From positions 1 to 8,684 of IMG/VR virus record IMGVR_UViG_2909246061_000003: a stretch of DNA of 8,684 nt; one strand, given 5' to 3'. The notes beneath the pieces are model-generated. The model ran no database searches and was not told the DNA's origin. It was given only the letters and a program-made list of their open reading frames with translations. This document shows, one piece after another, positions 1,108-8,266 of the stretch. This DNA is from a virus. Its lineage: Duplodnaviria > Heunggongvirae > Uroviricota > Caudoviricetes. The position numbers and the translations under genes are program-made. Every line of letters begins with the position of its first letter. The stretch's first letter is position 1.

Positions 1108-1524
1108 TCACCCATCTTGCTGCGGTGCTACTATTGAAAAGTGCTCACACCCTTTAGCCCAAATAGTTTTGATAGTTGTCCAACTGACTGGAACCTTGAT
1201 TTCGATTCTCCCGCTACAGTCACAAGTTTCGCAATCATCATCACCAAAGCATTCCGGGCAGCTTATAAACGTAGTTTCTGAAAATTCACCGGATAGCACA
1301 CCCTTAGCGCCGTTCTCGGCTGTTAGTCTCTTCGGCACCATGACCCAACCATCCGGAATTACCGGAGAGTTGCCGGGTTCTTTAATGTGCAAGCGAGGCT
1401 CACCATCTTTTGGCTCAGGCCACTGGCGCTCCATGTTGATCTTCAATTTATCTTCCATAGCAGCGGTAATTTCAGCATCGCTGATGCCAGCACGGCGCTG
1501 TGCATCCCACAACAGGAAATGCAT
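1108..1524 (-). CDS. Hypothetical Cys-rich protein, 138 aa, possibly the 3' remnant of a longer gene
   Basis: Minus-strand ORF with protein-like composition, whereas the overlapping plus ORF 1169..1558 is Ser/Leu-rich and starts on TTG. C-terminal CPEC-x6-CETCDC cluster suggests metal binding. No SD before the ATG at 1524. The frame is open upstream only to a stop at 1557-1555, right at the junction where lambda-like sequence begins. Confidence 0.4.
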   Translation of the reverse strand: MHFLLWDAQRRAGISDAEITAAMEDKLKINMERQWPEPKDGEPRLHIKEPGNSPVIPDGWVMVPKRLTAENGAKGVLSGEFSETTFISCPECFGDDDCETCDCSGRIEIKVPVSWTTIKTIWAKGCEHFSIVAPQQDG

Positions 1525-1566
1525 ACAGTACGGAACTAAACGCGGAAAAGCCGCTTAAGACATTCC

Positions 1567-1598
1567 CGCTCTTACACATCCCAGCCCTGAAAAAGGGC
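1567..1598 (+). promoter_or_regulatory. nutR-like N-utilisation site: boxA CGCTCTTAC (1567-1575) and boxB GCCCTGAAAAAGGGC (1584-1598)
   Basis: Seen directly. Matches lambda nutR boxA/boxB as I recall them, with about one mismatch in the spacer. The following leader down to the cII ATG also looks lambda-like. Confidence 0.8.
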
Positions 1599-1677
1599 AT
1601 CAAATTAAACCACACCTATGGTGTATGCATTTATTTGCATACATTCAATCAATTGTTATCTAAGGAAATACTTACAT

Positions 1678-1956
1678 ATGCAACTTACAAGTACTCGCAA
1701 GAAAGCGAATGCAATTACAAGCAACATCCTGAATCGAATTGCTGTACGTGGTCAGCGAAAGGTTGCCGACGCGTTAGGGGTTAATGAATCGCAAATTTCG
1801 CGATGGAAAGACAGCTTCATCCCCAAAATGGGAATGCTTCTGGCTGTTCTTGAATGGGGTGTTGAAGACGAGGAGTTGGCGGAACTGGCTAAGCAAGTAG
1901 CCAGAATGCTGACAAAAGAAAAAGCCCCGAAGAACGGCGAATTCTTCGAGGCCTGA
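1678..1956 (+). CDS. cII: Transcriptional activator CII homologue, 92 aa
   Basis: The stretch SQISRWK...IPK..MLLAVLEWGV.D...A.LA.QVA..LT..K.P is collinear with lambda CII. ATG at 1678 is preceded by AAGGAAA. The ORF-track start at 1618 is an upstream non-ATG extension and is not used. The N-terminal 25 residues differ from lambda while the leader matches, indicating a mosaic. Confidence 0.85.
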   Translation: MQLTSTRKKANAITSNILNRIAVRGQRKVADALGVNESQISRWKDSFIPKMGMLLAVLEWGVEDEELAELAKQVARMLTKEKAPKNGEFFEA

Positions 1957-1990
1957 TGTAGAAAGACTGGATCAATCCACAGGAGTAATT

Positions 1991-2152
1991 ATGACAAAAC
2001 GTCGTAAGAAATACCAGGAAAAAGAAGAGATTCGACACCCTGATTCACCTGAGGGATTAGTGGTAGCCGCAGCAAATAACAGGGCGTTCGCAGAACGCCT
2101 TGTTGGTGTTTACAGACTAGCCAAAGCAGGAGTGAAACATGGGCGTCGTTAA
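1991..2152 (+). CDS. Small basic ORF, 53 aa, using a lambda-O-like RBS and start context
   Basis: AGGAG at 1981-1985, then ATG at 1991. Product MTKRRKKYQEKEEIRHPDSPEGLVVAAANNRAFAERLVGVYRLAKAGVKHGRR. Overlaps the O-like start by 14 nt. Could be a real small gene or a by-product of a recombination junction. Confidence 0.3.
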   Translation: MTKRRKKYQEKEEIRHPDSPEGLVVAAANNRAFAERLVGVYRLAKAGVKHGRR

Positions 2153-2936
2153 GTTAGCTGATTACAGGCCTCAACTGGAGGTCGTGGAGCATCGCGTGGC
2201 AGATACCGAAGATGGTTTCATGCGCATTGCTAACGAGATTACCGACAGTCTGCTGATGGCTGATTTAACCGTCCGGCAGTTGAAGGTGATGCTCGCTATC
2301 ATGCGCAAGACATACGGATTCAATAAGCCGATGGATCGACTCACAAACACGCAGATAGCAGCCATGACAGGTATTCATCACACTCATGTTTGCGCTGCCA
2401 AGCGCCAGCTTATCGAGCGTAAATTCCTCATTGCTGATGGCGTGAAAATCGGAGTGAACAAGGTGGTTTCTCAGTGGATTAGCCAGGACAGCTTAACATT
2501 AGCTAAAACAGCTAATAAAACATTAGCCAAGTCGGCTAATGGGTATAAGCCAAGTCAGCTAAACACAAAAGACAATATACAAAAGACAATAAATACAAAT
2601 ACCCCCTTACCCCCTAACGGGGGCGGCGATGGGCAGGTTAAACCTGAACGTCGCAAGGCAGAACGAATCGACTACGAATCCTTCCTGAACGCCTACAACA
2701 CCGAAGTCGGTGACAGACTGCCACACGCTGTTGCGGTCAACGAGAAACGCAAACGCCGCCTGAAGAAAATCATCCCGCAACTGAAAACGCCAAACGTGGA
2801 CGGTTTCAGAGCGTATGTCAGGGCGTTTGTGCATCAGGCCAAGCCGTTTTACTTCGGAGACAACGACACGGGCTGGACGGCCGATTTTGATTACCTGCTG
2901 AGGGAAGACTCGTTAACGGGAGTTCGGGAAGCGTAG
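2139..2936 (+). CDS. Replication initiator, lambda O-like N-terminal domain, 265 aa
   Basis: AGGAG at 2128-2132, ATG at 2139, in-frame stop immediately upstream. N-terminal half is collinear with lambda O (RVAD.EDG...L...L..ADLT.RQ.KV.LAI.RKTYG.NKPMDR.T..Q). C-terminal half is not recognisably lambda O. Internal iteron-like repeats are listed separately. Confidence 0.8.
   Translation: MGVVKLADYRPQLEVVEHRVADTEDGFMRIANEITDSLLMADLTVRQLKVMLAIMRKTYGFNKPMDRLTNTQIAAMTGIHHTHVCAAKRQLIERKFLIADGVKIGVNKVVSQWISQDSLTLAKTANKTLAKSANGYKPSQLNTKDNIQKTINTNTPLPPNGGGDGQVKPERRKAERIDYESFLNAYNTEVGDRLPHAVAVNEKRKRRLKKIIPQLKTPNVDGFRAYVRAFVHQAKPFYFGDNDTGWTADFDYLLREDSLTGVREA
2477..2603 (+). repeat. Origin-like array inside the O-like gene: four iteron-like repeats followed by an AT-rich tract
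   Basis: Repeats of about 21-24 bp, each with internal dyad ATTAGC...GCTAAT: 2477-2497, 2497-2520, 2521-2544, 2545-2568. Then an A/T-rich tract to about 2603 (AAAAGACAATATACAAAAGACAATAAATACAAATAC). Same architecture as ori-lambda inside O. Confidence 0.5.
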
Positions 2937-2962
2937 CTAAATTTCATTCGCCAAAAAGCCCG

Positions 2963-3541
2963 ATGATGAGCGACTCACCACGGGCTACGGCTTCTGACTC
3001 TCTTTCCGGTACTGATGTGATGGCTGCTATGGGGATGGCGCAATCACAAGCCGGATTCGGTATGGCTGCATTCTGTGGTAAGCACGAACTCAGCCAGAAC
3101 GACAAACAAAAGGCTATCAACTATCTGATGCAATTTGCACACAAGGTATCGGGGAAATACCGTGGTGTGGCAAAGATCGAAGGAAATACTAAGGCAAAGG
3201 TACTGCAAGTGCTCGCAACATTCGCTTATGCGGATTATTGCCGTAGTGCCGCGACGCCGGGGGCAAGATGCAGAGATTGCCACGGTACAGGCCGTGTGGT
3301 TGATATAGCAAAAACAGAGCAGTGGGGGAGAGTTGTTGAGAAAGAGTGCGGAAGATGCAAAGGTGTCGGCTATTCAAGGATGCCAGCAAGCGCCGCATAT
3401 CGCGCTGTAACGATGCTAATTCCAAACCTCACCCAACCCACCTGGTCACGCACTGTTAAGCCGCTGTATGACGCTCTGGTGGTGCAATGCCACAAAGAAG
3501 AGTCAATCGCAGACAACATTTTGAACGCGGTCACACGTTAG
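2963..3541 (+). CDS. Q: Late antiterminator Q, lambda-type, read from the first in-frame ATG (192 aa); native start codon apparently lost
   Basis: Product has the Zn-binding CRDCHGTG...CGRCKGVG module and is collinear with lambda Q as I recall it. The frame is open upstream to 2891 and encodes ...VAKFHSPKSP before the Met-Met at 2963, matching lambda Q residues about 6-15, but no ATG/GTG/TTG or SD is present there. Only 26 bp separate it from the O-like stop. Confidence 0.75.
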   Translation: MMSDSPRATASDSLSGTDVMAAMGMAQSQAGFGMAAFCGKHELSQNDKQKAINYLMQFAHKVSGKYRGVAKIEGNTKAKVLQVLATFAYADYCRSAATPGARCRDCHGTGRVVDIAKTEQWGRVVEKECGRCKGVGYSRMPASAAYRAVTMLIPNLTQPTWSRTVKPLYDALVVQCHKEESIADNILNAVTR

Positions 3542-3583
3542 CAGCATGATTGCCACGGATGGCAACATATTAACGGCATAATA

Positions 3584-3612
3584 TTGACTTTTTGAATAAA
3601 GTTGGGTAAATT
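3584..3612 (+). promoter_or_regulatory. pR'-like late promoter (-35 TTGACT 3584-3589, 17-bp spacer, -10 TAAATT 3607-3612) with adjacent qut-like region
   Basis: Hexamers and spacing seen directly. The surrounding sequence closely resembles the lambda pR' region from memory, up to about 3640, where similarity ends. Confidence 0.6.
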
Positions 3613-3646
3613 TGACATCAACGATGGATAAATGCACTCGTTAAAT

Positions 3647-3685
3647 AAAGCCCTGAGTTAATAGCTCTGGGCTTTTTGCGTTTTA
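3647..3685 (+). terminator. Intrinsic terminator closing a short leader transcript from the pR'-like promoter
   Basis: Stem 3650-3657 GCCCTGAG pairs with 3665-3672 CTCTGGGC (one T-T mismatch), loop TTAATA, then TTTTTGCGTTTT. Confidence 0.5.
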
Positions 3686-3958
3686 AGCACGGCCTTTCTG
3701 AAAGCACATCAAACCAAATACCAGACAGACAATACCCTCACCTTATAGGGACACTTGCTTCAACAGGAGGGACGGTTAGGACCGCCATCCTATATGGGAC
3801 GACCGCCAATAGAACCACGGCCACGGTAATAGAACTCTTCAGAGATGGCACAGTCGCTGCCGGGCATACTTTTACGCTGAGAGATATTTCTTTTGGAGAC
3901 AGCAGGGCTCTAGGGGCTGATTTTGGAGGCTCCTTCGGGAATCTGTATAAGTTCTAAT

Positions 3959-3976
3959 CGGCCGCATCAGCGGCCG
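3959..3976. terminator. All-GC hairpin just past the gtrC stop, a possible operon-end or bidirectional terminator
   Basis: CGGCCGC (3959-3965), loop ATCA, GCGGCCG (3970-3976). A U-rich tract follows on the plus side only (TATCTCTTT). On the minus strand it lies 8 nt after the gtrC stop without a clean T-run. Confidence 0.35.
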
Positions 3977-3983
3977 TATCTCT

Positions 3984-5585
3984 TTACAGATAAGCGACGA
4001 AATAGCCGTCAATTTTCTTTATTTTAAGTTTGTCGCCATAGATGGATAGGGGCTTCTTGAGCCATGTATCGTCTGTGGCGACATATATCTCATTATTCCT
4101 TAGCGTACCCTTAGCCTTAATTTCGGCTATATATCTTTTGTTATTATCTATCGCTGCTTTGTCTGCTCTAGCAAAATACCCAAAATTAAGTTTCATTTTT
4201 TCTGAAGAAGCAAATTCAGCAAATGGGAGCCAATGTCTTAAGCTGAACTCATCGTAATCAGTGGTTATGATAGTGTCCTTCCCTTTGGAGATGACTTCCC
4301 ACTCTTTACTCAACATTTGAGAGCTGTATGGCTTACCAGTATATATCTCTCGAACGGCTTTGAAAAAGTTGCTTTCATCCGCCACTGATATTAATAGAAT
4401 AGGGAGCAAGACATAAGCAGAACTTTTCGAGGTTTTTGCTAAGTATGCCAAAACAATCAACATCAAGATCATCGTCACCGGCCAGAAGAACCGACCAGAA
4501 GAGCGAAAAACGCCACCAACCTTCATGAGAAAGTCATTCATTGGAATTTCAATGAGATTAAATCCATAAAAGTTAATTCGATAAGTTATAGAAACGGCAG
4601 CCAGAACTAAACAGAAGTACAATACAGGAGATTTTATAATTCTCCTGAAATCTATGGACTTTCTTAAAGAGGAGTCTATCAGCATAAACAAAAATAGCGT
4701 GATGATGCCTAATCCTAGATAATTTATACCCTCAAAGTTAGCCTGTTGACTCCCATGACTCAAGATAAGATGTGAGTATCTCTGGTCTCCTGGGTTGAAC
4801 CAGCCGGCAAGATCCATGTTAAGGAATCCGAATCCAGGGTATGGGTCAGAGCCTTTAATAACAAAGTATCCGGTAGCATACATTGCGAGAAATATTAACA
4901 CAGAGTAACACGCGAAAAAGAATGCCGATCTTTTTAAAGATAAACGGTTTGTGTTCAGTTTGTTTAAAATGTCAAATGCAAAAATTAAATACACCATTAT
5001 CAGCAAATATGCATGAATGGTGACTGAGAGAACTAAAATAGCAGCCCATCTTTTAAAGCAAAAAGACCTATTGATATAAAGGTAAAATCCAAAAAGAATT
5101 AGCCACTGAGCGCCTAATGCAAAGTGACCACCGGCACGATTTAAGAATATTGGTGCAATGCAGAAGAAGCATGAACCTATTGCAGAGAATATCTCATCCT
5201 TTGTTAACTTACGAAGAACCAAATACGCAGAAAACGTCATAAGCACAAAGCAAAGATACATCCAAAGCCCGTGATATTGAAATCTGGCGGGGAGAAAGTC
5301 GCTAAAAGGCTTGAATATGAAGGCCATAATTGGGATTGAGTCGGTGTAAACGATAGACCCACCTACACCCATCCCATAGTTATAATTTAGGCCAAGGGGC
5401 CACTGCAACAACGGAGTATTTCGGAAGAAATTCCATCCTGACCAGCTTTGACCAGGATCACCTATCATAAGCCATCCAACTCTTTTGAAGTCCAGCACAT
5501 TCACACCAACATACATAGCAAACATTGATGTCGTGAATATAAACATAAATAAGGACGCTAAAATCCTTTTTTGTGCCTTAGTCAT
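3984..5585 (-). CDS. Serotype-specific O-antigen glucosyltransferase, GtrC-type polytopic membrane protein, 533 aa
   Basis: Third gene of a gtrA-gtrB-gtr(type) operon. The ATG at 5585 overlaps the gtrB stop by 8 nt (ATGACTAA). N-terminal two-thirds has many hydrophobic segments; C-terminal hydrophilic domain of about 130 aa. Markedly AT-rich codon usage compared with neighbours. No close relative recognised from memory. Confidence 0.7.
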
Positions 5586-6501
5586 TGTGTTTATTCCTTA
5601 AGATGTAACGAGGCCTAGCCTTGACTTCAATATATATTCTTCCGATATATTCACCAAGAACGCCAATGCCGATAAGTTGAATCCCGCCCAAGAACAGGAT
5701 TGAAACAAGGAGTGAAGGATATCCTCTCACGGCATTTCCAAATGCAATAGTATCGATGATCATCCAGGCTCCGTAGATAAATGCAAGCCCAGCGACTAGT
5801 AATCCAATATAAGTCCACATACGTAGAGGGAATGTAGAAAAGCTAGTAATCCCTTCTAGAGCTAAATTCCAAAGCTTCCAGCCATTAAACTTTGTGCAAC
5901 CAGCGACTCGCTCAGCTCTGGCGTATTCTACTACATCTGTTTTCCCGCCAACCCAAGACAAAACGCCCTTCATGAACAAGTTTCTTTCTGGCATTAGTTT
6001 GATATTTTCTACCACTTCTCGTGACATTAAACGGAAGTCACCGACGTTCTCTTCAATTTTGGGATTGCTGATTTTATTGTGTAGCTTATAGAACCACTCA
6101 GCTGATTTTCGCTTTAAACGACCGTCAGTAGACCTGTCTGTACGTTTGGCCAGAACCATATCCGCCCCAGCCTGCCACTTCTCAATTAGGTGGGGGATTA
6201 CTTCAATTGGGTCCTGCAGATCTACATCAATCGGAATGACCGCGTCGCCTGTAGCTTGGTCAAGGCCAGCAAACAAAGCCGGTTCCTTTCCGAAGTTACG
6301 CGTGAAGGAGAGAGGAACTACGAGTGGGTCAGCAATGGCAAGCGCGTTAATAATTGATTCTGTAGCGTCTTTGCTACCGTCGTTAATGAAGACTATTTCG
6401 ACTTCATGCTGCTGAAGCCCTTCAAATTCCCGCACGGTTTTATAGAAGATTGGAATTGCTTCCTCTTCATTAAACACAGGAACGACCAGAGAAATTTTCA
6501 T
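5578..6501 (-). CDS. gtrB: Bactoprenol glucosyltransferase GtrB (GT2 family), 307 aa
   Basis: Near-collinear with Shigella/Salmonella phage GtrB from memory ([23 protein letters not shown]...FINDGSKD...DVDLQDP...). ATG at 6501 overlaps the gtrA stop (ATGA). Confidence 0.9.
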
Positions 6502-6860
6502 TTCACATCCCTAAAGACAATGAACTTTGAATAAATAAACCCGCACACCAGACTGATGGCGGAGAACAGAATTAAGGTGATGATTGGTGCCAGACCAGAT
6601 TTATCCGCCGCCCAACCCACAGCTGCGCTAAGCGTCCCCATAAAGCCGACGTAAAGCATGTATCGCATGGTTGTTGTGGATGACTTAAACGTGAATCTGG
6701 CATTTGCGAAGAAGCTAAATGACACAGCCACAACGAACCCGGCAAAGTTGCCAAGGGCCTGTCCTGTATGGAATGCATAGATGCAAATTGCGAACACTAC
6801 CCAGTGAATGAGCGTGTTAATGACACCTATCGATGTGTACTTGGCGAATAACTTTAACAT
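6498..6860 (-). CDS. gtrA: Bactoprenol-linked glucose translocase (flippase) GtrA, 120 aa
   Basis: From the internal ATG at 6860 the product [23 protein letters not shown]... matches GtrA at its usual 120-aa length. The ORF-track start at 6923 is a GTG extension and is not used. Confidence 0.85.
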
Positions 6861-6936
6861 TATAGAAATCAGTGAATTCGGAAAGGTCTGAAGTGTAGCA
6901 CCACAAACGCTATTGATCGACACCGCCGATCAGTAC

Positions 6937-6950: not shown

Positions 6951-8266
6951 GGGTCTTCCCTTGTTGTGGTGGCTGAAGGCATGATAATGGTGTATTTAAT
7001 CGCCAGAGGTCACCGCCATGGACGAAAAGTCCCTCTACGCTCATATTCTCAACCTGTCCGATCCGTGGCAGGTAAAGTCCCTTTCTCTCGATGAAAATGC
7101 CGGTTCTGTTACTGTCACTATTGAGATCGCTGAAAACACCCGGCTAGCCTGTCCGGCCTGCGGTAAATCCTGTTCTGTTCACGATCACCGTCATCGTAAA
7201 TGGCGCCATCTTGATACCTGCCAGTTCACCACTATTGTTGAAGCCGATGTTCCACGAATTATGTGTCCGGAGCATGGCTGTCAGACGTTGCCTGTTCCGT
7301 GGGCTGGCCCCGGAAGCCGGTATACGTTGCTGTTCGAATTGTTCGTTCTCTCATGGCTGAAAATCAGCACCGTTGATGCTGTCAGGAAGCAACTTAAGCT
7401 CAGCTGGAATGCGGTTGACGGCATTATGACCCGGGCAGTTAAGCGAGGTCTTGCCCGGATAAAAAAGCCATTATCCGCCCGTCATATGAATGTGGATGAG
7501 GTCGCCTTTAAAAAAGGACATCGTTACATAACGGTGATCTCCGATCGCGATGGTCGGGCGCTGGCCTTAACGGATGATCGCGGCACAGAGAGTCTTGCCG
7601 GCTATCTTCGCACACTCACTGATGGGCAGTTGCTGGCTATCAAAACGCTCTCAATGGACATGAACGCGGGCTATATAAGAGCAGCGCGCATCCACTTACC
7701 CAGCGCGGTTGAGAAAATCGCCTTTGACCGCTTCCATGTGGCGAAGCAACTGGGCGAGGTAGTTGATAAAACCCGTCAGAATGAACATCCGCACCTCCCT
7801 GTTGAAAGCCGACGCCAGGCAAAAGGAACCCGCTTCCTGTGGCAGTACAGTGATAAGTGGATGACTGAATCCCGGCAGGAAAAGCTGATGTGGCTGCGTG
7901 CACAGATGAAGCTGACGAGCCAGTGCTGGGCGCTGAAAGAGCTGGCAAAGGATATCTGGAACAGGCCATGGAGCGAGGAAAGGCGGAGTGACTGGCAGAG
8001 ATGGCTGGCGCTGGCGGCTAACAGTGACGTTCCCATGATGAAAAATGCTGCGAAAACGATAGGAAAAAGGCTGTACGGGATCCTGAATGCGATGCGACAC
8101 AGTGTCTCAAACGGAAATGCGGAGGCACTTAACAGCAAGATAAGGTTGCTGAGAATAAAAGCCAGGGGATACCGAAACCGGGAGCGCTTTAAACTGGGAG
8201 TGATGTTCCACTACGGTAAGCTGAATATGGAGTTCTGAGCCTTCCCACCATGATCGGGGAAGACCC
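6951..8266 (+). mobile_element. ISL3-family insertion sequence, about 1.3 kb, with imperfect terminal inverted repeats
   Basis: Left end GGGTCTTCCC...GGTGG..GAAGGC (from 6951) mirrors the reverse complement of the right end (...GCCTTCCCACC...GGGGAAGACCC ending at 8266). Contains a single transposase ORF and is flanked by an 8-bp direct repeat. Confidence 0.75.
7018..8238 (+). CDS. ISL3-family transposase, 406 aa
   Basis: ATG at 7018. N-terminal Cys/His zinc-ribbon (CPACG...C..H.H) followed by a long catalytic region, typical of ISL3-type transposases from memory. The three antisense ORFs within it are taken as artefacts. Confidence 0.85.
   Translation: MDEKSLYAHILNLSDPWQVKSLSLDENAGSVTVTIEIAENTRLACPACGKSCSVHDHRHRKWRHLDTCQFTTIVEADVPRIMCPEHGCQTLPVPWAGPGSRYTLLFELFVLSWLKISTVDAVRKQLKLSWNAVDGIMTRAVKRGLARIKKPLSARHMNVDEVAFKKGHRYITVISDRDGRALALTDDRGTESLAGYLRTLTDGQLLAIKTLSMDMNAGYIRAARIHLPSAVEKIAFDRFHVAKQLGEVVDKTRQNEHPHLPVESRRQAKGTRFLWQYSDKWMTESRQEKLMWLRAQMKLTSQCWALKELAKDIWNRPWSEERRSDWQRWLALAANSDVPMMKNAAKTIGKRLYGILNAMRHSVSNGNAEALNSKIRLLRIKARGYRNRERFKLGVMFHYGKLNMEF

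Follow-up and report, generated by a model that had tools for sequence, protein, structure and literature searches.

The locus described here raises the question of whether a group of repeats and an A/T-rich stretch lying inside an O-like gene form a replication origin, and of what such an origin could still do where it now stands. The window, i.e. the whole stretch of 8,684 nucleotides analysed (IMG/VR record IMGVR_UViG_2909246061_000003), belongs to a decaying prophage of E. coli. We put at roughly nine in ten the probability that the element is the replication origin of an HK97-type module, of the lambda/P22 family in which the origin lies inside the initiator gene, with its cis-acting DNA intact and orphaned.

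The O-like gene (2139-2936, plus strand) encodes a replication initiator of 265 amino acids. It matches Pfam Phage_rep_O (E = 3.1e-33, amino acids 19-113, corresponding to nt 2193-2477) and PHROG 345 'replication initiation O-like' (E = 2.1e-100, profile positions 1-286 of 297), and over nt 1-793 it has 99.1% nucleotide identity to the O gene of phage HK97, three observations that confirm the name given to the gene in the first-pass annotation. Codons 1-264 match HK97 O with two residue differences upstream of the truncation, and the last 9 of the 273 codons are replaced by one codon and a stop; the alignment to the gene of an intact prophage likewise diverges past nt 793. The Pfam limits delineate the N-terminal domain (2193-2477, plus strand), origin-binding by homology, which carries the motif H80-H81-T82-H83; an alignment and a low-confidence model place this motif in a putative recognition helix. 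The single-sequence AlphaFold model of the domain has a pLDDT of 42.5, a quality insufficient for fold searching, and no solved structure matches the O-like protein by sequence. The C-terminal domain (2624-2931, plus strand; PHROG 345 positions 185-286) lacks the last 9 codons and probably contacts the phage helicase. The C-terminal part is 96-98% identical to the O genes of BTP1 and of a Stx2a phage, the N-terminal parts of which differ.

The repeats start at 2478, inside the O-family coding sequence and between the Phage_rep_O domain and the C-terminal domain, so that their earlier placement in the O linker is correct. Repeat search returns a single family of four 18-nt copies (2478-2495, 2498-2515, 2522-2539 and 2545-2562), as the four tandem repeats first noticed in the sequence would predict, with start-to-start spacings of 20, 24 and 23 nt, about two helical turns, and identities to the reference copy of 78, 78, 100 and 89% for iterons 1 to 4. 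The consensus is ATTAGCCAAGTCGGCTAAT, with the dyad TTAGCC-N5-GGCTAA, and the copies measure 18-19 nt within 2478-2562. Taken as 19-mers without strand, they are iteron 1 (2478-2496, ATTAGCCAGGACAGCTTAA), self-complementary at 8/19 positions, iteron 2 (2498-2516, ATTAGCTAAAACAGCTAAT) at 14/19, iteron 3 (2522-2540, ATTAGCCAAGTCGGCTAAT), the best copy, at 16/19, and iteron 4 (2545-2563, ATAAGCCAAGTCAGCTAAA), which adjoins the A/T-rich tract, at 10/19. The ATTAGC/GCTAAT dyad originally proposed for the repeats therefore holds for the inner copies, while in the outer copies 1 and 4 it is degenerate. DNA hairpins are predicted for iteron 2 (-4.6 kcal/mol) and iteron 3 (-7.5 kcal/mol). A minus-strand terminator-like hairpin at 2541-2521, returned by the terminator scan, is iteron 3 plus the T-run complementary to TAAAAC and is not a separate feature.

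The significance of the array was assessed with a statistic independent of any motif, the number of non-overlapping 18-mers with at least 14 of 18 positions identical within 120 nt. Four copies are observed, the only family in the window with at least three by this statistic, and three or more were reached in 0/500 dinucleotide-preserving shuffles of the open reading frame and in 0/500 shuffles of 2440-2640; the comparison with shuffled controls, named at the start as a possible refutation, comes out in favour of the repeats. The degenerate pattern TWAGCYN5RGCTWA has four matches, all within the array, against 0.23 expected. Tandem Repeats Finder reports only the A/T-rich tract and the TACCCCCT repeat, and misses the iterons because their spacing is irregular and their spacers are divergent. 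No DnaA-box-like TTWTNCACA was found on either strand in 2301-2800 by a regular expression search without mismatches.

To the right of iteron 4 stands the A/T-rich tract (2563-2599, no strand), recognised by its composition and a 14-nt direct repeat and containing two copies of ACAAAAGACAATA(T/A). Its G+C content of 0.216 over 37 nt compares with 0.499 for the whole O-like gene, as expected from the A/T-rich stretch reported to follow the repeats, and it is the probable DNA-unwinding element. Further right, 2600-2623 holds a direct repeat of two TACCCCCT copies (2600-2615, 8-nt period) and the palindrome CCCCC-TAAC-GGGGG (2610-2623; predicted DNA hairpin of -5.4 kcal/mol). The span of 2477-2603 first assigned to the origin is adequate for the iterons and the A/T-rich tract, and omits this direct repeat and palindrome. 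The palindrome is common to P22 and most relatives; in two of them (L073 and L054) the stems are altered and the pairing is kept.

A close likeness is to the origin of phage lambda (NC_001416, 39034 to approximately 39160, inside gene O), whose annotated iterons at 39034, 39054, 39078 and 39101 have the same 20/24/23 spacing as those of the window. Each origin is embedded in its initiator gene, where it separates the N-terminal from the C-terminal domain, and has four dyad-symmetric iterons of 18-19 nt; the two initiators share the Pfam N-terminal domain. Both origins have TAAAAC between iterons 2 and 3, and ACACAAAAGACA with the A/T-rich tract to the right of iteron 4, ACACAAAAGACA following that iteron directly in the window, lambda and P22 alike. 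The layout of ori-lambda is thus indeed present, as had been recognised at the start, and the spacing recurs in the annotated origin of P22. The iteron word differs, being TTAGCC-N5-GGCTAA in the window and TCCCTC-N6-GAGGGA in lambda, the N-terminal domains are 38% identical, and the partner is a DnaB-type helicase in the intact relatives of the window and the P loader in lambda. Lambda also has a palindrome to the right of its A/T-rich tract, with a sequence different from that of the window.

The origin of P22 lies in gene 18 (NC_002371, rep_origin 32840-32984), which has been described to contain four repeats of about 20 bp unlike those of lambda and to have as partner gp12, a DnaB-type helicase (PMC8022706). 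Its iteron spacing equals that of the window, its A/T-rich tract and C5/G5 palindrome are identical at 60/61 positions (98%), and its gene order (orf48-like, 18/O, DnaB-type helicase) is that of the module in the window; the annotation of the P22 origin reads only 'similar to phage lambda'. Unlike the window, P22 has the iteron arms TTTACC/GGTAAA, and DNA identity is 54% in the N-terminal and 58% in the C-terminal domain.

Gene O of HK97 (NC_002167, 29868-30689) contains the same element, 99% identical over nt 1-793. From iteron 1 onwards 190 of 190 nt are identical, a run comprising the iterons, the A/T-rich tract, the palindrome and 44 nt beyond; unlike the window, HK97 retains all 273 codons of O as well as its helicase gene and pR. 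HK97 and P22 are treated as different replication specificities by Villafane et al. (PMC2629481), and with an N-terminal domain and an iteron array essentially identical to those of HK97 the window is of the HK97 type. The HK97-type module is also found in ST104-like Salmonella phages and in the Stx phages 2851 and SH2026Stx1. In the HK97 record no rep_origin and no iterons are annotated, and neither the HK97-type iteron word nor a description of the origin is present in the literature searched, the scope of which lay outside the HK97/HK022 and P22 genome papers. To our knowledge the HK97-type origin has never been mapped experimentally.

Lambdoid origins are made up of iterons and an A/T-rich tract located centrally in gene O, and the number of iterons varies within one specificity class (PMC7466680). 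The Stx phages 933W and P27 have iterons and an A/T-rich tract inside O, as in the window, but these are of the lambda type, with six iterons and lambda P. Three relatives belonging to the class of the window (L089-L091) have six or more iterons.

Eighty IMG/VR loci encode an N-terminal domain 53-99% identical to that of the window, and almost all of them keep four TTAGCY-N5-RGCTAA units with the 20/24/23 spacing, which is also found in Yersinia phage 06.16; the array is furthermore present in 397 of 5426 complete E. coli genomes (about 7%). Among 28 distinct arrays from relatives with an N-terminal domain 53-76% identical, agreement with the window is 89% in the dyad arms, 68% in the spacers and 64% in the DNA between iterons; the coding DNA of the N-terminal domain in relatives reaches about 72% identity where it aligns best.

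The iteron arms can be set beside the motif at the putative recognition helix. The HK97-type phages and the Yersinia phage combine HHTH with the arm TTAGCC, P22 and a Providencia phage combine (A/D)(P/S)TK with TTTACC, KO-TP1 and 4A7 have the arm TTTACCTGAATCAGGTAAA and lambda has TCCCTC. Chimeras separate the two halves of the protein: BTP1 joins the N-terminal domain and iterons of P22 to the C-terminal domain of HK97, the Stx2a phage joins an unrelated N-terminal domain and different repeats to that same C-terminal domain, and among the 80 loci HK97-type N-terminal domains and their TTAGC iterons are combined with several C-terminal domains and partner genes unrelated to one another. As judged from these sequence comparisons, which cover five specificity classes, the iteron type tracks the N-terminal domain independently of the C-terminal domain and the partner gene.

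By homology with ori-lambda, dimers of the N-terminal domain of O would bind the four dyad-symmetric iterons at the half-site TTAGCC, the O-iteron nucleoprotein complex would distort the DNA so that the adjacent A/T-rich tract melts, and the C-terminal domain would recruit the phage DnaB-type helicase, encoded after O in intact phages. Binding, melting and helicase recruitment are all proposed by this analogy. The general logic is like that of the plasmid iteron origins (pSC101, R6K, P1 and F), in which repeats for the Rep protein stand beside an easily melted A/T-rich tract; plasmid iterons do not lie within the rep gene, mostly lack dyad symmetry, are bound by Rep monomers and also control copy number by handcuffing.

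What remains of the module in the window is defined by blastn comparison to an intact M18 prophage (L001). Window positions 1524-2931 correspond to L001 3001-4408, and positions 2929-3746 to L001 8932-9749, leaving an O-Q deletion joint with a 3-nt overlap (2929-2931, no strand) at which about 4.5 kb, containing the DnaB-type helicase gene and the nin region, are missing and codon 264 of O is joined to gene Q. A partner gene directly 3' of O, of either the lambda P loader or the DnaB-type helicase kind, is absent from the window; a helicase gene lies next to O in the intact M18 prophage, HK97 and P22, and its absence here is that of a deleted module and does not denote another kind of element. 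The first-pass annotation was right that a partner is lacking, but to judge from the intact relatives it would be a DnaB-type helicase and not a loader of the lambda P type. On the left side, homology with intact prophages begins at 1524, within the 3' end of cro, and pR, cro and cI are absent from the window. Rightward transcription from pR over or near the origin is consequently missing, a crude consensus scan finds no sigma-70-like promoter in 1400-3000, and the gene to the left of the O-like gene is on the opposite strand.

The oop region is retained upstream of O (1922-1999, minus strand), with a tO terminator-like hairpin (1954-1922) detected by the terminator scan and, recognised by its sequence, the pO/oop 5' box ACTGGATCAATCCACAGGAGTAATTATGACAAA (1967-1999), conserved in lambdoid phages as quoted in PMC3349717. 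An Rfam scan of 1400-3800 finds no curated RNA family; its ctRNA_p42d hit, which scores 19 bits where the gathering threshold is 50, overlaps the oop terminator and is a sub-threshold chance match. The O-Q joint is present in 1 of 5426 complete E. coli genomes, and compared to that genome the window has suffered an extra 3.6-kb deletion and an IS insertion.

The cis-acting origin proposed in the first-pass annotation has accordingly been kept as sequence, identical to HK97 over 190 nt, in a remnant that has lost pR, cro, cI and the final 9 O codons. With these and the helicase gene gone, we infer that in the window the origin is an inert orphan, and all factors for any activity would have to come in trans. 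To fire, it would need a phage of matching specificity, either resident in the same cell or infecting it, to provide O and helicase. The truncated O might itself be expressed by read-through and might have retained binding.

An alternative is that the segment from oop to the origin has been kept for use by the host, as a decoy titrating O, for interference with HK97-type phages or, once a helper phage has melted it, as a hairpin trigger of a defence system. Plasmid-borne oop plus ori-lambda provides a likeness in its reported 'inhibition phenotype', a 2026 preprint describes that OLD binds the iterons of ori-lambda and is activated by origin hairpins, and iterons 2 and 3 have the predicted hairpins given above. 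The inhibition was reported with pBR322-derived plasmids, however, whereas the chromosomal site is single-copy, and the rarity of the O-Q joint together with the further deletion and the IS insertion argues for ongoing decay and not for retention; host use is very improbable. The more specific proposal that the stranded oop-iteron segment is a single-copy decoy or sentinel against phages of HK97-type specificity, and not neutral debris, is in our opinion a very improbable one. If it were true, the O and helicase of an infecting phage would be drawn to the chromosomal orphan origin, or would fire it, and either replication of the phage would be hindered, as in the plasmid phenotype, or the exposed iteron hairpins would activate a resident defence that senses hairpins, for example OLD or Lamassu.

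A reading at the protein level would derive the repeats from a repetitive linker peptide of O (LAKTANKT/LAKSANG) under selection as protein, with no cis function for the DNA. It has in its favour that copies 2 and 3 are in the same frame, 24 nt apart, and encode LAKTAN and LAKSAN, and that the proline (CCN) and glycine (GGN) codons of PLPPNGGG could partly yield the palindrome. Copies 1 and 4, however, encode the unrelated ISQDSL and YKPSQL and still keep the DNA word. The four copies have reading-frame offsets of 0, 2, 2 and 1, i.e. one DNA word with three different translations, so that the repeat is maintained at the DNA level. The greater conservation of the arms (89%) than of the spacers (68%) across relatives fits a symmetric DNA-binding site and not a codon pattern, and the spacing is that of the annotated O-binding iterons of lambda. 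The palindrome of L054, CCCAC/GTGGG, is not composed of C and G runs and, judged from the DNA letters, cannot stem from Pro-Pro and Gly-Gly codons alone. We regard the peptide as a highly improbable explanation.

That the origin is autonomously active, with truncated O relying on host DnaB/DnaC instead of a phage helicase, merits hardly any credence. In its favour are an O frame that stays open through 264 of 273 codons and an intact cis site. Against it, pR is deleted, no promoter-like sequence was found in the region scanned, the left gene is on the opposite strand, O lacks its C-terminal end, such C-terminal domains precede a phage-encoded helicase in intact phages, and a second autonomous origin on the chromosome is expected to be deleterious. 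Chance, or low complexity in an A-rich stretch, could point to the AT skew of 0.4-0.7 in the array region and to the silence of Tandem Repeats Finder on the iterons, but it is refuted by the shuffles, none of which gave three copies against the four observed, and by conservation of the array in 80/80 related viral loci and in the 397 E. coli genomes.

The preferred reading, an orphaned origin of an HK97-type module, is of little weight as a discovery, since textbooks of lambdoid biology already place the origin inside gene O and the present copy does not differ from that of HK97. Its use lies elsewhere. The coordinates of the array can serve for annotating HK97-type iterons, with the exact 20/24/23 geometry of lambda, and the pairing of residues 80-83 (HHTH) with TTAGC arms, next to that of APTK with TTTACC in P22, amounts to a testable rule of specificity. 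Related phages might trans-activate orphan origins left in decaying prophages, and for this reason such origins should be kept in mind when local changes of copy number upon infection are interpreted.

The O-like gene (2139-2936) contains one family of four 18-nt repeats, detected by repeat search, with starts at 2478, 2498, 2522 and 2545 and a spacing of 20, 24 and 23 nt. Written as 19-mers the iterons are ATTAGCCAGGACAGCTTAA (2478), ATTAGCTAAAACAGCTAAT (2498), ATTAGCCAAGTCGGCTAAT (2522) and ATAAGCCAAGTCAGCTAAA (2545). The internal ATTAGC/GCTAAT dyad described in the first-pass annotation holds for the inner two copies, which are self-complementary at 14/19 and 16/19 positions respectively, and is degenerate in the outer two. 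By a motif-independent statistic, which counts non-overlapping 18-mers sharing at least 14 of 18 positions inside 120 nt, no other family anywhere in the window reaches three copies. Dinucleotide-preserving shuffles, 500 of the ORF and 500 of the segment 2440-2640, never gave even three copies, which excludes a chance origin and shows the repeats to be real. The degenerate pattern TWAGCYN5RGCTWA has four matches, all in the array, with 0.23 expected. A terminator scan flags iteron 3 and the following T-run (2521-2541, minus strand) as terminator-like; the dyad symmetry of the iteron most likely accounts for this, though the feature could hinder leftward transcription into the origin.

The 37 nt right after the iterons (2563-2599) have a G+C content of 21.6%, versus 49.9% for the gene, in agreement with the A/T-rich stretch noted at first reading, and hold ACAAAAGACAATA(T/A) twice. 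Extending past the right limit of the originally annotated interval are a direct repeat of TACCCCCT, present twice at 2600-2615, and a palindrome, CCCCC-TAAC-GGGGG, at 2610-2623 (DNA hairpin of -5.4 kcal/mol). The lambda record has four annotated iterons at 39034, 39054, 39078 and 39101, spaced 20/24/23 exactly as in the window, and P22, whose rep_origin (32840-32984) lies inside gene 18, has four TTTACC-N5-GGTAAA repeats with the same spacing. In register, lambda reads ATCCCTCAAAACGAGGGA-AA-ATCCCCTAAAACGAGGGA-TAAAAC-ATCCCTCAAATTGGGGGA-TTGCT-ATCCCTCAAAACAGGGGG-ACACAAAAGACAC... and the window ATTAGCCAGGACAGCTTA-AC-ATTAGCTAAAACAGCTAA-TAAAAC-ATTAGCCAAGTCGGCTAA-TGGGT-ATAAGCCAAGTCAGCTAA-ACACAAAAGACAA.... 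Judged from this shared spacing and register alignment, the array has the predicted ori-lambda architecture position by position, with another iteron word, as the layout first proposed would have it. P22 and the window are 54% identical in N-domain DNA, 54% in the iterons and 58% in C-domain DNA. In lambda, O binds the four repeats and nucleates the O-some beside the A/T tract, which is needed for unwinding and not for binding (PMC7466680). Gene 18 of P22 and of phage L carry different repeats (PMC8022706), and PMC2629481 gives HK97 a replication specificity of its own. Three IMG/VR loci (L089, L090 and L091) have six or more iterons of the same class instead of four, in line with reports on the lambda-type origins of the Stx phages 933W and P27.

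The O-like protein matches Pfam Phage_rep_O (aa 19-113, E = 3e-33) and, over its whole length, PHROG 345 'replication initiation O-like' (E = 2e-100). Its gene is 99.1% identical to HK97 gene O over nt 1-793, and the O genes of several P22-like Salmonella phages and Stx phages match it at 98-99%. From iteron 1 on, HK97 is identical to the window over 190 nt; the suggestion that a cis-acting origin may be kept is thus right as to sequence. The origin is a known kind of element, whose sequence is already in databases within HK97, where the record leaves it without annotation. The first-pass annotation had also pointed to a missing helicase loader gene. The partner is indeed gone, but it was a DnaB-type helicase and not a loader, as seen from gene order: the HK97 record labels the gene after O 'P: replicative DNA helicase, similar to DnaB', P22 has the likewise DnaB-like gene 12 next after gene 18 (record; PMC8022706), and an intact M18 prophage, 98-99% identical, carries cI, cro, cII, a small ORF, the replication protein (273 aa), a replicative DNA helicase, the nin genes and Q.

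Between sbcB and dacD of E. coli sits a decayed lambdoid (P22/HK97-like) prophage, of which the window is a part; strain PSS-10 matches the window in three pieces at approximately 100% identity. Read rightward, the region comprises the cro 3' end, nutR boxB GCCCTGAAAAAGGGC (1585-1599), a cII-family gene (Pfam Phage_CII), the oop terminator hairpin found by terminator scan (1954-1922, minus strand), the conserved pO/oop 5' box (1967-1999; box sequence as given in PMC3349717), a 53-codon ORF that corresponds to HK97 gp53 and P22 orf48 (PHROG 1331), the O-like gene and, immediately following, a lambda-type Q gene truncated at its 5' end (2963-3541; Pfam Antiterm). Window 1524-2931 aligns with 3001-4408 of the M18 locus and window 2929-3746 with 8932-9749, which places a deletion of approximately 4.5 kb between O and Q, with a 3-nt overlap at 2929-2931. 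This deletion cost O its last 9 codons (A-stop in place of GKFADRGIA) and took away the helicase gene, the whole nin region and the first codons of Q, whose ORF now begins at an internal ATG; as O is not in frame with Q, there is no fusion protein. A second joint, at 1524-1528 with a 5-nt overlap, marks the loss of a further 3.6 kb relative to PSS-10, from inside a DUF550 gene to the cro 3' end. Since leftward homology begins inside the cro 3' end, pR, cro and cI are absent, and this immunity region is missing from the window strain and PSS-10 alike. The left neighbour gene is on the opposite strand, and a consensus scan of 1400-3000 found no sigma-70-like promoter. An ISL3-family element (6951-8266, transposase 7018-8238), with terminal inverted repeats GGGTCTTCCC and an 8-bp target duplication ATTAATAT, lies between the gtrA-like gene and an S24-peptidase gene and is not in PSS-10. 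Intact in the remnant is a three-gene O-antigen modification cassette (3984-6923, minus strand) encoding a GtrA-family protein, a family-2 glycosyltransferase (yfdH/GtrB-like) and a DUF6311 membrane protein in GtrC-like position; it is probably this part of the prophage that gives the host a phenotype. The O-Q joint occurs in only one of 5426 complete E. coli genomes, that of PSS-10, and the origin sequence in 397 of the 5426, nearly always within an annotated 'replication protein' gene. The remnant is young and still decaying, and there is no sign of selection to retain the origin.

By homology with lambda and P22, in an intact module O dimers would bind the four iterons via the N-terminal domain, the complex would bend the DNA and melt the 37-nt A/T tract, and the O C-terminal domain would recruit the phage DnaB-type helicase. 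The window has an intact cis site and lacks the helicase gene, pR and a complete O. With promoter, helicase gene and O terminus missing, it is very unlikely that the origin retained here is active autonomously; it would be silent unless a phage of HK97-type specificity supplied O and helicase in trans. Even with such a helper the absence of rightward transcription could limit firing, if transcriptional activation is needed as in lambda (PMC7466680). The remnant could also be thought of as a decoy or exclusion element beneficial to the host. Having retained nutR boxB, the oop terminator and the pO/oop box upstream of O, it keeps the oop-to-iteron segment, which in lambda, when cloned on a plasmid, gives a replication-inhibition phenotype against rep-lambda phages (PMC3349717), and origin hairpins are reported in a preprint to activate OLD; however, there is a single copy of the site, in a remnant that is rare and still in decay, and we regard this role as highly improbable.

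Named phages define five iteron classes, four of them with their own motif in the putative second HTH helix of the O N-domain: GIHHTHVC with TTAGCC-N5-GGCTAA (HK97-type, Yersinia phage 06.16), (A/D)(P/S)TKCSTAK with TTTACC-N5-GGTAAA (P22, Providencia PSTNGR2lys), LPHKCSAAK with TTTACCTGAATCAGGTAAA (Klebsiella KO-TP1, E. coli phage 4A7), LPVKRCNEAK with TCCCTC-N6-GAGGGA (lambda) and, in Stx2a phage EH1965, an unrelated N-domain with CCGCACATGA at a 12-nt period. An IMG/VR scan with the N-domain alignment gave 80 loci, 53-99% identical to the N-domain of the window, almost all of which keep four TTAGCY-N5-RGCTAA units at 20/24/23 spacing. Among 28 distinct arrays from loci 53-76% identical in the N-domain, agreement with the window was 89% for the arms, 68% for the central spacers and 64% for inter-iteron DNA; for comparison, the best-aligning part of the N-domain coding DNA shows approximately 72% identity. 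Both this arm versus spacer pattern and the reading-frame offsets of the four starts (0, 2, 2, 1) contradict a repeat purely at the peptide level: copies 2 and 3 alone give a repeated peptide (LAKTAN/LAKSAN), and copies 1 and 4 encode unrelated residues although the DNA word is still kept, so that the repeat is maintained as DNA. In these relatives C-terminal domains and downstream genes differ; HK97-like helicases (26-100% identity) are among the partners, and at least two loci have a lambda-P-like protein there. The His-His-Thr-His of O codons 80-83 (window 2376-2387) goes with TTAGC arms, as APTK does with TTTACC in P22 and PVKR with TCCCTC in lambda. In three loci (L078, L079 and L089) an otherwise P22-like N-domain scaffold has KHHTH replacing MAPTK, and the arms are TTAGC-type, so that the link is valid in two backgrounds, HK97-like and P22-like. 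HHTH in the putative recognition helix is a candidate specificity determinant, and conservation and co-variation are as would be expected of a symmetric site for a dimeric N-terminal domain, with which the literature agrees.

The 61 nt of A/T tract and palindrome (2563-2623) are identical to P22 (1904-1964 of its locus) at 60/61 positions. The O-gene mosaic joints of BTP1, which matches P22 at 100% up to and including the iterons and the HK97 type at 96% beyond the palindrome, and of the Stx2a phage, 98% HK97-type only after the palindrome, are located in this island, and such natural chimeras separate the modules. The island is common to different specificities and is the site of module exchange; it looks like a shared cis element doubling as crossover point between an origin-recognition and a helicase-recruiting module. 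In the Stx2a phage the O-like gene fuses an unrelated N-terminal domain to the same HK97-type C-terminal domain, and where the iterons would be (1855-1997 of its locus) it has CCGCACATGA-type repeats of 12-nt period in two clusters, probably another origin type. In two IMG/VR loci the palindrome to the right of the A/T tract, approximately 50 nt after iteron 4, still pairs with altered stems, CCTCCC/GGGAGG (L073) and CCCAC/GTGGG (L054); reading frame aside, Pro-Pro and Gly-Gly codons cannot by themselves explain the latter, a hint that DNA structure may be under selection.

No paper writing out the HK97-type iterons was found in the literature library searched. The analysis also yields, in explicit form, the consensus and geometry of the iterons of the HK97-type origin, together with a specificity motif that can be tested, HHTH for TTAGC.
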